NCBI GenBank assembly: GCA_003695605.1
Contig: RFIK01000006.1
Location: 1-30,500, forward strand
DNA length: 30,500 nt
DNA from: Chlorobiota bacterium
GTDB lineage: Bacteria > Bacteroidota > Ignavibacteria > Kapaibacteriales > NICIL-2
Direction of reading: 5' to 3'
Part shown: positions 19,911 to 29,697 of the stretch, one piece after another
Numbering within the stretch: position 1 is the stretch's first letter
Layout: each line of letters starts with the position of its first letter
The notes under the pieces: generated by a model
Database searches by the model: none
The model's input: only the letters and a program-made list of their open reading frames with translations
Told to the model about the DNA's origin: nothing
Position numbers and translations under genes: made by a program

Positions 19911-20169
19911 CATTGCACGTTGTCAACGCATGGCCTCAGGCTGCGTCTAATTGTCTGACTTTGTGTGGCTATGTTTTTCTGGCACAGAATATTCTGGTAA
20001 CCTCAGGAATTCAACGAATCCACGAAACAAAATGGCGCGCAAGCGTGTTACTGAAACTGAAGCTGTTCAACGACTCAATGGAGATACGTGGCATGACCAA
20101 ACTGTGACCATTTCGCGCTCGCGAGAGCGCATTTATGGAAGTGCCACATTTGATCGAAAGGAGCCAGCA

Positions 20170-20775
20170 ATGGACCTGACCAAGCAACTCGAACAACTCT
20201 ACCGCACCGATCGGAAGAAGCTGCTGGGCTTTATCCGACAGCGGGTCAAGACGCAAGAAGAAGCCGAAGACATCCTCCACGATGTGTTCGCGAACGTTCT
20301 TGCAGCAGCGCAGACAGTGGATAAACCAATCGAAAACGTCGCATCGTGGGTATTCACTGCTGTGCGTAACCGCATTATTGACTCGTATCGAAAGAAAAAG
20401 ACCGATGCGTTCTCGGACATGCTCACGCCTTCTCAGGTGGATGAGGGGGTCGAGTCGTTCGAGAACTTCATCGCCGACGAAAGCTACTCACCCGACACAG
20501 AACTCCTCCGCAAGACGATTTGGGAGGAAGTTCAAAAAGGGCTTGCCGAGCTTCCGCCAGAGCAGCGCGAAGTCTTCGAAAAAAATGAGTTCGAGGGTGT
20601 CTCCTTCCGAGAGATGAGTGAAGCAACCGGTGTCAACATCAATACACTCTTGGCGCGGAAGCGGTACGCTGTCCTGCACCTGCGGAAAAAGCTCGGTTAC
20701 CTTTACGACATGCTCAACAACCGCGAAGAGCAGCCTGACGACATCGAAAACCTCGAAACGGAAGTCGAGTCCTAA
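20170..20775 (+). CDS. ECF sigma-70 factor
   Basis: Region 2 (EAEDILHDVF, SWVFTAVRNRIIDSYRKK) and region 4 (LPPEQREVF, FREMSEATGVNINTLLARKRYAV). RBS AAGGAG precedes ATG 20170; an alternative start exists at 20032. Confidence 0.92.
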   Translation: MDLTKQLEQLYRTDRKKLLGFIRQRVKTQEEAEDILHDVFANVLAAAQTVDKPIENVASWVFTAVRNRIIDSYRKKKTDAFSDMLTPSQVDEGVESFENFIADESYSPDTELLRKTIWEEVQKGLAELPPEQREVFEKNEFEGVSFREMSEATGVNINTLLARKRYAVLHLRKKLGYLYDMLNNREEQPDDIENLETEVES

Positions 20776-27250: not shown

Positions 27251-27880
27251 CTACGCACCGTCAGAATTGCCCCAGCGGGGGGGGGCGGAGACTCCAAGCA
27301 TTTTCCGGAGTTTTGCGATTGCGCGATAGTAGCGTTGGCGGACGGCGTCAACCTTCATTCCGACATGCACTGCGATTTCGGCAAAACTTTTGCCGCTGCA
27401 GTACTCTCGTATGATGTACTGATCGCATTGGGAAAGCTTGCCGAGCGCTTCAGAGATCAAGAGGATGTCCGTGGTGACTTCTGCGTTTGCCGAGCTTGTG
27501 AGTTCAGCGTTGAAGTCTGTCTCGTAGTGAACACGTCGGTAGTGAGGTGTTACTTGATTCGACAGATATGAGCGTGCTGCCTTGATGCAATCGGAAACAA
27601 GAAGATGCAAAAGAGGGCAGGAGCAGTCAGAGCACTGGATGCAACCATGTAAGCAAGTATGGCGCGGGCATGCGATCGCGGGATTTTGTGCCATCGAGCG
27701 CGTTGCGTTCTCGATCCCGACGCAGACGCCTAATCGAACCCAATCTTCGGGGAGTACGTGGTGCCACAAGATTCGCCAGGAGTTGTGGACGACGCCGAAG
27801 ATCCTCCGGTAGTGTTCAGGAGACATCATCAGGCGGTAAAGTGCTTCCCACCGGGCGCGTGTGCAGTTGTCATCACTCAT
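27251..27880 (-). CDS. Divergent ECF-like sigma-70 factor with an internal Cys/His-rich insert (209 aa)
   Basis: Clear region 4 (ALGKLSQCDQYII...GKSFAEIAVHVGMKVDAVRQRYYRAIAKLRKML). Region 2 is only weakly recognisable (PEDWV; LLHLLVSDCIKAARSYL) and flanks CPRHTCLHGCIQCSDCSC. Confidence 0.75.
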   Translation of the reverse strand: MSDDNCTRARWEALYRLMMSPEHYRRIFGVVHNSWRILWHHVLPEDWVRLGVCVGIENATRSMAQNPAIACPRHTCLHGCIQCSDCSCPLLHLLVSDCIKAARSYLSNQVTPHYRRVHYETDFNAELTSSANAEVTTDILLISEALGKLSQCDQYIIREYCSGKSFAEIAVHVGMKVDAVRQRYYRAIAKLRKMLGVSAPPRWGNSDGA

Positions 27881-28229
27881 GACATGGTACTCCGACGATC
27901 ATCCTGCATGACGAAAATACACAACGCACTCTGAGCTATCAATAGCGTATTCCAGCAGGAAAAATTTTTCCATCAGCGTGTCACAACTTGCCGATTTCGA
28001 GTACATGGGATATGGAAGCGCGCAACCATTTGTGCGCTCAGTTTGGCAAAGCGAACCGACTATGGCAAATTGCCGCCATCTTCGTGCTGTGGCAGGGCTG
28101 CATGCACGAGTCCATTGGGCAGAATGTGCGGCGCTGGCTGATGGTGCTTGTGTGTAGGAGTTTCTGCCAGCCGCACCAGCACGGAGAGGCGGGAAAATCA
28201 GGATATTTCACTGCTATTTTGAGACAACA

Positions 28230-28943
28230 ATGTTGCGTAAACTGTGTGTTGCTGCACTTGTTCTTGCATCCGTCGTATCCTCTCAGGCTGGCGAGACAGG
28301 TGCGAAGGCAATTCTCCAAAACGAGAACAACTGCCGGCCTCCGACAATTATCACACTTCCGTGTCTCGGGGGTTGTTACGAATGGTCGGTTCAAGAGGAC
28401 CGCAATTGTGATGGCGTGTACGACTGGATTACAGTGAAGCGATGTGATGGCTCGCTCTGTTCTCAACCGATTCAGTCCGTTGCATATCCGATTGGGAATA
28501 TTGCTGATGGAGTCTTCAGTATCGCGTTTACTTCTTGGCAATGTGCAGACGGACGCTGGCAGTGGCAGCTTGATCTCTTCGACCGTGATTCTTCATTACT
28601 GGCATCGGTGATACAGAGGTGCGGAGATTCTACACCGCAGGTGGTGTACCCTGCACCACCGGTGATAGCTCAGAGCAGCAACGAAGCTGAAACTTCCCAA
28701 GCGCGCATTTTCCCAAATCCGACTACTGGAGAACTTTTGATCACGAATGCAGAAGCGGTGGTAAAGATTGATGTGTATGACAGCAAAGGGCGAAGGATCG
28801 AGACACCGGCCCTCGAGGCACGGAAGGATGGTGAAACGTATGTACTACGACTCTCTGATAGCCTGCCATCGGGTGTTTATCTGCTCGCGATCCATCGAGC
28901 AGGACAAAAGCCAGAATTCGTTCCGTTTGTTATGTACCACTAA
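28230..28943 (+). CDS. Secreted Cys-rich protein with T9SS type A sorting domain (paralog A, 237 aa)
   Basis: Signal peptide; 8 Cys in the N-terminal domain; CTD IFPNPTTGEL...VYDSKGRRI...LPSGVYLL. Confidence 0.9.
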   Translation: MLRKLCVAALVLASVVSSQAGETGAKAILQNENNCRPPTIITLPCLGGCYEWSVQEDRNCDGVYDWITVKRCDGSLCSQPIQSVAYPIGNIADGVFSIAFTSWQCADGRWQWQLDLFDRDSSLLASVIQRCGDSTPQVVYPAPPVIAQSSNEAETSQARIFPNPTTGELLITNAEAVVKIDVYDSKGRRIETPALEARKDGETYVLRLSDSLPSGVYLLAIHRAGQKPEFVPFVMYH

Positions 28944-28956
28944 CTTGGCATTCAAA

Positions 28957-29697
28957 ATGAAACTCTGGTCAAGAGCCATTGCACTTGCGATGATTGCTAC
29001 TGTTCTTGTTGCTGAACCAGCAAAGCCACAGATGTACCAATGGCAGTGCCCCGGACCAAATGGCGGGTGGGGCTGGCAGGTCCTTGAAGATCGTGATGGG
29101 GATGGACGGTATGACTGGGAAACGCGGCATGAGTGTGACGGTTCGATCTGCGAAGGCCCACTTGGAGTTAGCAACAAACGACAAATTGGGTACTTATCAG
29201 GTTGGGTGTCACTCTCGTTTACGCAGCTTGTTTGCGAGGAATCTGTTCCCAATGGGTGGTCCCTCCGTTTATTCGACACCAACGGTCTTCTCATGGGGAC
29301 AGTTGAGCATTCCTGTTCCGATACAACTGCGAAGCTCATTCTCCCTGAAGTTGTGCCGGAGTCCCTCAAAGGAGCAGACTTTCGAAAACGCCAAGCGCTT
29401 GGCCGATACGCATTCGTATTCGAGAATCTCAGCGCGACATGGAATGCTGCTTCTTCGACGCTTGATGTAACATGCCGTGTCAAAATCCCTCTTCCCTTGA
29501 CACTTCGCGTATTGGAGCGGAATCGTGGGCAAGAGGATCGAGTAATTGCAACGGTCGTTACTCCGCAGCCTGTGGTAGGAGAACGTGTCATTCACGTCCC
29601 AGTACCGCCACTGCATTCTGGGATGTACTACTGGCAAGTGATGGCACCGAATGGATCAGCTGTGACAAGTGTATTTACGATCGAGTCGTTGCGATAA
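28957..29697 (+). CDS. Secreted Cys-rich protein with a divergent T9SS-like CTD (paralog B, 246 aa)
   Basis: Start moved to MKLWSRAIALAM (ATG 28957). The N-terminal domain aligns with paralog A; the C-terminus has LHSGMYYWQV. Confidence 0.85.
   Translation: MKLWSRAIALAMIATVLVAEPAKPQMYQWQCPGPNGGWGWQVLEDRDGDGRYDWETRHECDGSICEGPLGVSNKRQIGYLSGWVSLSFTQLVCEESVPNGWSLRLFDTNGLLMGTVEHSCSDTTAKLILPEVVPESLKGADFRKRQALGRYAFVFENLSATWNAASSTLDVTCRVKIPLPLTLRVLERNRGQEDRVIATVVTPQPVVGERVIHVPVPPLHSGMYYWQVMAPNGSAVTSVFTIESLR

Follow-up and report, generated by a model that had tools for sequence, protein, structure and literature searches.

A probable divergent ECF-like sigma factor from a Chlorobiota bacterium carries a conserved cysteine/histidine insertion in its predicted -10 specificity loop

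What would a sigma factor do with a dense cluster of cysteines in the loop that is expected to read the -10 promoter element? This question is raised by a single gene (P0001) of a Chlorobiota bacterium, located at 27251..27880 on the minus strand (stop codon included) of contig RFIK01000006.1, of which we analysed positions 1 to 30,500; this whole 30,500-nt stretch is referred to below as the window. Based on its open reading frame (ORF) translation, a match to the Sigma70_r4_2 model and synteny, the gene is annotated as encoding a 209-aa divergent ECF (extracytoplasmic function)-like sigma factor, and we are fairly confident that the protein is a real, if very divergent, member of this class. 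A first-pass annotation made from the sequence had reported six Cys and two His within 18 residues in a region resembling sigma region 2. The ORF translation reproduces this exactly: residues 71-88 (nt 27617-27670) read C-P-R-H-T-C-L-H-G-C-I-Q-C-S-D-C-S-C, i.e. six Cys and two His per 18 residues. The insert is flanked by PEDWV (residues 44-48) and LLHLLVSDCIKAARSYL (residues 90-106), both of which are present as originally described. The reading that we favour, to which we assign a probability of roughly one half, is that the protein is a divergent ECF-type sigma factor with a metal-organised knuckle in its -10 reading loop.

Family models identified the C-terminal half. Pfam Sigma70_r4_2 (PF08281) matched residues 141-191 with 29.7 bits against a cut-off of 25.7, and TIGR02937 scored 36.8 bits over residues 103-195 only, which is under its cut-off of 42.9. 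A profile of the family matched region 4 of Mycobacterium tuberculosis SigL in the PDB (E 7e-7), and structural comparison by VIA-align returned many sigma-4 domains with Z scores of 9-10 and a root-mean-square deviation (rmsd) of 1.1-3 Å. The C-terminal half is a sigma-4 domain, with the -35-binding helix-turn-helix assigned to residues 133-195 (27296..27484, minus strand) from the PF08281, PDB profile and VIA-align matches.

The N-terminal domain (residues 1-119; 27524..27880, minus strand) was assigned as sigma-2-like from AlphaFold2 models and VIA-align. AlphaFold2 modelled the whole protein, from an alignment of nine sequences, with a mean predicted local distance difference test score (pLDDT) of 78, and residues 1-122 alone as four helices with a pLDDT of 82 and a predicted template modelling score (pTM) of 0.77. 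The helices of this domain span residues 2-18, 21-39, 45-64 and 89-118. The predicted fold of the N-terminal half is a sigma-2-like four-helix bundle, a point on which the first-pass annotation had let its proposal stand or fall. When the N-terminal model was compared with 48,161 PDB representatives by VIA-align, sigma-2 domains made up 28 of 50 among the matches listed, and these matches spanned the whole of their targets. The best was the SigE N-terminal domain (Z 7.2, rmsd 3.0, 79 of 80 residues), and others included an N-terminal fragment of SigR (Z 6.7, 78/78), Bartonella RpoE (Z 6.6) and SigH (Z 6.5). Such enrichment of the model's matches for one fold family, sigma-2, would be hard to explain otherwise.

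In the models, the four helices are followed by a 13-residue linker and the sigma-4 domain, and there is no region 1.1 or region 3. This sigma-2 - linker - sigma-4 layout of about 200 aa is like that of M. tuberculosis SigH and SigL, Escherichia coli sigma-E and Streptomyces coelicolor SigR. The inter-domain linker (residues 120-132; 27485..27523, minus strand) contains no Cys and has a pLDDT below 50 at residues 121-131. Helix 3 (residues 45-64; 27689..27748, minus strand), placed by DSSP of the models and by hhalign, starts E-D-W-V-R and is the counterpart of region 2.2 (A-E-D-L-V-Q-E...); residues E45-D46-W47-V48-R49 are invariant in the family alignment. Helix 4 (residues 89-118; 27527..27616, minus strand), placed from the models and the invariant columns, is the counterpart of regions 2.3/2.4 and carries the family signature L-S-N-x3-P-H-Y-R-R and an invariant C98. 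We also examined core binding in silico by predicting a complex between the sigma-2-like domain and residues 235-345 (which include the clamp coiled-coil) of the beta' subunit from the same genome. The complex scored 0.46 and the best control 0.00. Of 80 solved complexes, 58 attained this mark, as did 2 of 110 mismatched pairs; at 0.60 or under, it was attained by both mismatches and by just 7 of the 80 solved ones. The runs agreed in at least 0% of contacts, with a partner pLDDT of at least 64; as the sigma-2/beta' coiled-coil complex has been solved, resemblance to known structures may account for the pass. The prediction lends weak support to core binding through the beta' coiled-coil.

The first-pass annotation placed the Cys/His cluster roughly where the -10 recognition loop of ECF sigma factors lies, and the models agree. 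The structure of M. tuberculosis SigH shows sigma-2 to be a compact four-helix domain with a specificity loop (residues 72-79) before the last helix (PMC6411747). The T-9 base of the -10 element, flipped out, sits within this closed loop with W81 of the last sigma-2 helix stacked on it; in the DNA-free holoenzyme the loop is disordered, its conformation being induced by promoter DNA (PMC6411747). In the protein described here, the corresponding helix 3 - helix 4 loop is enlarged (residues 65-88; 27617..27688, minus strand), with 24 residues compared with eight in SigH. A 17-residue module forms its C-terminal end, directly before helix 4. On the modelled topology, the Cys cluster is in the position of the ECF specificity loop.

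We next consider which residues of the insert are kept. Eight insert-bearing sequences (51-100% identity) were aligned as protein and as codons, and these alignments define the Cys/His insert (residues 71-88; 27617..27670, minus strand) and its core of C71, C75/76, H78, C83 and C88. C71, P72, H78, Q82, C83 and C88 are invariant in all eight sequences, and every sequence has a Cys at position 75 or 76, with Ser76 paired with Cys75. The remaining 10 of the 18 positions vary, all through non-synonymous changes. The conserved unit is therefore C-x3/4-C-x1/2-H-x4-C-x4-C, with C-P bracketing both ends; of the six Cys it keeps four, and of the two His one, as ligand-type residues. C80 is replaced by Phe in half of the sequences, and C86 by Val, Ala or Thr in the other sequences (Thr in a closely related strain from a mat metagenome). 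H74 is specific to the window, all other insert-bearing sequences carrying His at position 73 instead. Hence, the core Cys are retained in homologues, as the first-pass annotation required of a functional cluster, whereas its unit of six Cys and two His shrinks to four Cys and one His. This selective conservation within the insert makes the retained residues look like ligands, and four thiolates and one imidazole within 18 residues are probably the signature of a metal site, so that the insert would be expected to bind metal. Cysteine density itself is too weak a statistic to be used, because its background is contaminated by spurious frames: 14 of the 2,239 crude ORFs of at least 150 aa in this genome have at least six Cys per 18-residue window, and most of the others look from their sequences like spurious frames (background Cys, 1.9%). 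Separately, residue 79 (nt 27645), within the Cys loop, is Gly (GGT) in the window and Asp (GAT) in all orthologues and in four of four sequencing runs, so that Gly79 may represent strain variation or a mistake in assembling this metagenome-assembled genome.

Relatives were sought by word-index searches and by an exhaustive HMMER search of 1.84 billion representatives, which gave a family of about 10 members in all. These comprise six close homologues with 68-77% identity (of which one bears the annotation bacterium HR20 and another Candidatus Kapaibacterium), a homologue with 51% identity (P0007), another with 39% identity (P0008) and a distant relative with about 22-29% identity (P0028). A search of 201 genomes of the class gave matches in the window's own genus only (homologues carry the label Kapaibacterium), and there are a few metagenome relatives besides; the DNA was found in hot-spring and microbial-mat metagenomes, and the complete genome of a sister species (G051) carries the insert. 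The gene order PEPCK - SBP_bac_5 - NlpC/P60 - sigma is shared with five other contigs, and the reading frame and synteny are kept in at least six assemblies. Because it has this same gene order, P0008 is an orthologue, and it displays a clean gap of exactly 17 residues at the cluster. P0028 and canonical ECF sigma factors likewise have short loops with no insert. Since the segment is missing from P0008, P0028 and the canonical ECFs, it is most simply read from these comparisons as a derived insertion that was gained in this clade. Two further observations concern the family. The P0007 gene (L029, 2651-3465) is a truncated gene call: its N-terminal part exists but is broken by a stop and by a frameshift near the 5' end, and either the gene is a pseudogene or the metagenome contig was misassembled. 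In the genome of the window, a second sigma-like ORF (L021; G000:C150:3412-3735, plus strand) has a 209-aa open frame in which TIGR02937 matches the C-terminal part only (positions 56-165) and the N-terminal half is divergent and contains Cys (P-P-A-E-W-H-E-V-F-C...). This ORF possibly encodes a short-loop member of the same unusual family, distantly paralogous to P0001.

How does this protein compare with known sigma factors? Like canonical ECFs, it has a sigma-4 domain that is recognisable by sequence and, according to the model, a sigma-2 domain of four helices with a loop joining helix 3 to helix 4. Unlike them, it has a sigma-2 sequence that neither Pfam nor hhalign recognises, no Trp in helix 4, a Cys4-His cluster in a 24-residue loop and no anti-sigma gene nearby. 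Several sigma factors do carry their own Cys elements. CorE and CorE2 of Myxococcus xanthus (ECF238, formerly ECF44), together with ECF287 and ECF288, have their own Cys-rich metal-binding element and no anti-sigma factor (PMC8999054, PMC7826278). In contrast to CorE, the protein described here has no Cys in its C-terminal tail (residues 196-209; the last Cys is C161 in sigma-4) and no CxC in its linker (residues 120-132), its cluster lies inside sigma-2, and no sequence relationship to CorE is detectable beyond sigma-4. OrbS of Burkholderia cenocepacia, an iron-starvation ECF, uses its own Cys as a built-in anti-sigma and Fe(II) sensor; its cluster is at the C-terminus, and with Fe(II) the protein is kept from binding the RNA polymerase core (PMC9023288), whereas the cluster here is in the -10 reading loop. 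In M. tuberculosis SigK (ECF19) and ECF57-type proteins, Cys pairs within the sigma domains have been proposed as redox sensors (PMC7826278, PMC8999054). These are single pairs that form a disulfide within or between domains, as opposed to a compact Cys4-His loop insertion. Finally, a phage-encoded divergent ECF-like sigma factor reportedly has a conserved four-Cys module between its domains instead of in the specificity loop. The sigma-intrinsic Cys elements that have been described are thus C-terminal extensions, linker elements or single disulfide pairs (PMC8999054, PMC7826278, PMC9023288), and we found none described in the literature inside the sigma-2 specificity loop. Most likely, the gene encodes an ECF-type sigma factor whose own Cys module occupies a position so far undescribed.

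From these observations we propose that the insert would chelate a single metal ion, Zn(II) being the most probable one, and that the metal-loaded insert would fold into a compact knuckle. With this knuckle, the -10 reading loop would be larger and pre-organised, which would give the sigma factor a -10 specificity of its own, with promoter recognition and melting dependent on an intact, reduced and metal-loaded knuckle. We infer metal binding, the identity of the metal, RNA polymerase binding, DNA contact and any use of the loop as a signal input.

Several results weigh against this proposal. With regard to the N-terminal domain, Pfam gave no match for residues 1-125, with no Sigma70_r2 even at E 10. 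When the N-terminal half was aligned by hhalign with nine canonical ECFs of the same genome and five distant matches, the alignment was colinear (helix 3 E-D-W-V-R on region 2.2 A-E-D-L-V-Q, and helix 4 on 2.3/2.4), at a non-significant E of 0.065. The region 2 alignment is therefore weak, just as the first-pass annotation had warned. In a Foldseek comparison, which that annotation had also put forward, ECF sigma factors aligned with the full-length model over both domains with a probability of 0.99-1.0, but with the N-terminal model alone nothing was better than E 1, and region 2 of sigma-32, sigma-28 and sigma-E matched at template modelling (TM) scores of 0.43-0.46. Because Foldseek is non-significant for the domain alone, the sigma-2 assignment leans on VIA-align, for which Z scores of 5-7 are middling for helical bundles. 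The family alignment contains nine sequences, mostly from close relatives. With regard to the loop, residues 65-88 have no secondary structure in the AlphaFold2 models and a pLDDT of 53-65. Helix 4 starts P-L-L-H-L-L, the Trp is missing both here and in orthologues, and the usual W-L..I..N...D..R pattern is absent. Residues 60-100 have no Pfam match, so no zinc-finger model fits, and the insert spacing (C-x3/4-C ... C-x4-C) differs from the C-x2-C of a classical zinc knuckle. In the PDB, a sequence search with residues 62-96 returned a chance match only (eosinophil cationic protein, E 0.26), and the PDB profile search gave non-significant matches to the RING region of TRIM31 (E 3.7-5.8). Lastly, one metatranscriptome run provided a single 221-nt contig with a depth of 2.25 (27558-27770), the rest of the gene being uncovered; this single low-depth RNA contig settles neither transcription nor its absence.

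The alternative that survives best keeps the sigma factor and makes the loop a switch, with a Cys4-His sensor in the specificity loop that turns -10 recognition or melting on or off and replaces an anti-sigma factor. The triggers could be thiol oxidation, loss or gain of a metal (Zn, Cu or Cd), or the assembly or loss of a small Fe-S cluster. We regard such a switch as possible, although clearly less probable than the knuckle, and are slightly more doubtful still of its specific form, in which the -10 loop itself is a redox- or metal-sensing Cys4-His module (zinc or Fe-S) that acts on promoter melting and not on sigma availability. In its favour, no anti-sigma gene adjoins the sigma gene, here or in any syntenic locus, and the genes divergent from it code for Cys-rich proteins that are secreted. 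A His together with Cys spaced 4-6 residues apart also resembles the ligand spacing of Rrf2-type and SoxR-type Fe-S regulators. The five conserved soft ligands are gathered in one loop that is shaped by promoter DNA (PMC6411747), and sigma factors that sense through their own Cys do exist, namely CorE/CorE2 (PMC8999054) and OrbS (PMC9023288). Against this, no result separates a sensor from a structural site, and the orthologue that lacks the insert (P0008) is presumably functional. Cys4 sites are mostly structural and bind zinc, and in thermophiles such sites are a frequent addition that stabilises loops. Orphan ECFs are often controlled at the level of transcription only (PMC8999054). The first-pass annotation had gone as far as proposing that the metal or disulfide state directly gates promoter melting; the loop may act in this way, and a constitutive structural zinc site fits equally well.

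A further possibility is that the protein is not a sigma factor but a regulator in which a sigma-4/LuxR-type helix-turn-helix is joined to an unrelated helical sensor or oligomerisation domain with a zinc finger. The first-pass annotation had held a similar sigma-4-only regulator in reserve, and part of its reasoning stands, in that sequence detects sigma-4 only and the homology of the N-terminal sequence to sigma-2 is non-significant. Moreover, P0028 also matches GerE/LuxR and is MalT-like according to one annotation source, and the predicted beta' interaction is weakly supported. However, the domain order, 209-aa size and linker are of the ECF sigma type, the N-terminal model matches mostly sigma-2 domains with full targets covered, and the full-length Foldseek matches are ECF sigma factors over both domains. 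Furthermore, the E-D-hydrophobic-V start of helix 3 is colinear with the region 2.2 motif, and the nearest neighbours by protein language model fall in divergent sigma-70/ECF clusters. We consider this alternative improbable. Weakest of all, and in our view very unlikely, is a functionless or decaying lineage-specific insertion, i.e. a tolerated loop expansion with Cys kept through close kinship: the confinement of the family to one genus among the 201 class genomes searched, the frameshift near the 5' end of the P0007 gene (L029) and the low confidence of the loop models would suit it, but non-ligand positions change freely while the four Cys and one His never do (down to 51% identity), C75 is present where C76 is lost, which looks compensatory, and frame and synteny are maintained in at least six assemblies.

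The divergent ECF-type sigma factor with a metal-organised knuckle remains our preferred reading, and its surroundings offer candidate targets. On its 3' side the sigma gene faces a convergent NlpC/P60 peptidase gene, and on its 5' side lies a 349-bp divergent intergenic region (27881..28229), presumed to hold promoters, followed by genes for secreted proteins. Promoters in this group of bacteria differ from the sigma-70 type. No co-oriented partner gene is found next to the sigma gene. DNA alignment of the close insert-bearing orthologues shows the intergenic region to be conserved to roughly the same degree as the coding sequence (approximately 80% identity); it has no reading frame conserved between orthologues and no Rfam match. 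A 73-aa Cys/His-rich upstream gene call in locus L006 was considered as an anti-sigma factor and rejected, as its frame is not conserved between orthologues. In two independent assemblies (L022 and L024, positions 1-144) the contig ends at the very same place, 144 nt before the start codon; a repeat or a point that varies between strains may lie there.

Beyond the intergenic region, two tandem paralogues are encoded on the plus strand (28230-28943 and ~28960-29697), with 38% identity over 100 residues (E 7e-18). They share a Cys-containing N-terminal domain, and the first has a type IX secretion system (T9SS) C-terminal sorting domain. In relatives, the gene at this place differs: one (L006, 4353-4652) has a small gene for a secreted, Cys-rich protein of 99 aa, and another (L007, 4542-4919) has a T9SS-tail-like ORF. 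The divergent tandem paralogues are candidate targets of the sigma factor. Elsewhere in the window, a canonical ECF sigma factor is encoded at 19951-20775 (plus strand; TIGR02937, 74.8 bits), and the genome contains at least 10 sigma-70-family genes above the TIGR02937 cut-off, at least one of which is longer than an ECF sigma factor. At the start of the window, on the plus strand, are a 23S rRNA gene, represented by its 3' part (1-1001), and a 5S rRNA gene (1077-1193).

Among the signal transducers of bacteria, ECF sigma factors form a major class, and it is the specificity loop of sigma-2 that makes them orthogonal in synthetic circuits. The findings reported here come from a tiny family in uncultured hot-spring and mat bacteria, for which the functional statements are ones that we infer; within this family, the syntenic orthologue without the insert (P0008) constitutes a natural control. 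If the preferred reading is true, the family would have a new way of building -10 specificity, via a rigid, metal-organised reading head. Alternatively, the loop would represent a new regulatory logic in which a signal is coupled directly to DNA melting. If the loop does sense, this would be a form of sigma control without described precedent, for which an anti-sigma factor would be unnecessary.

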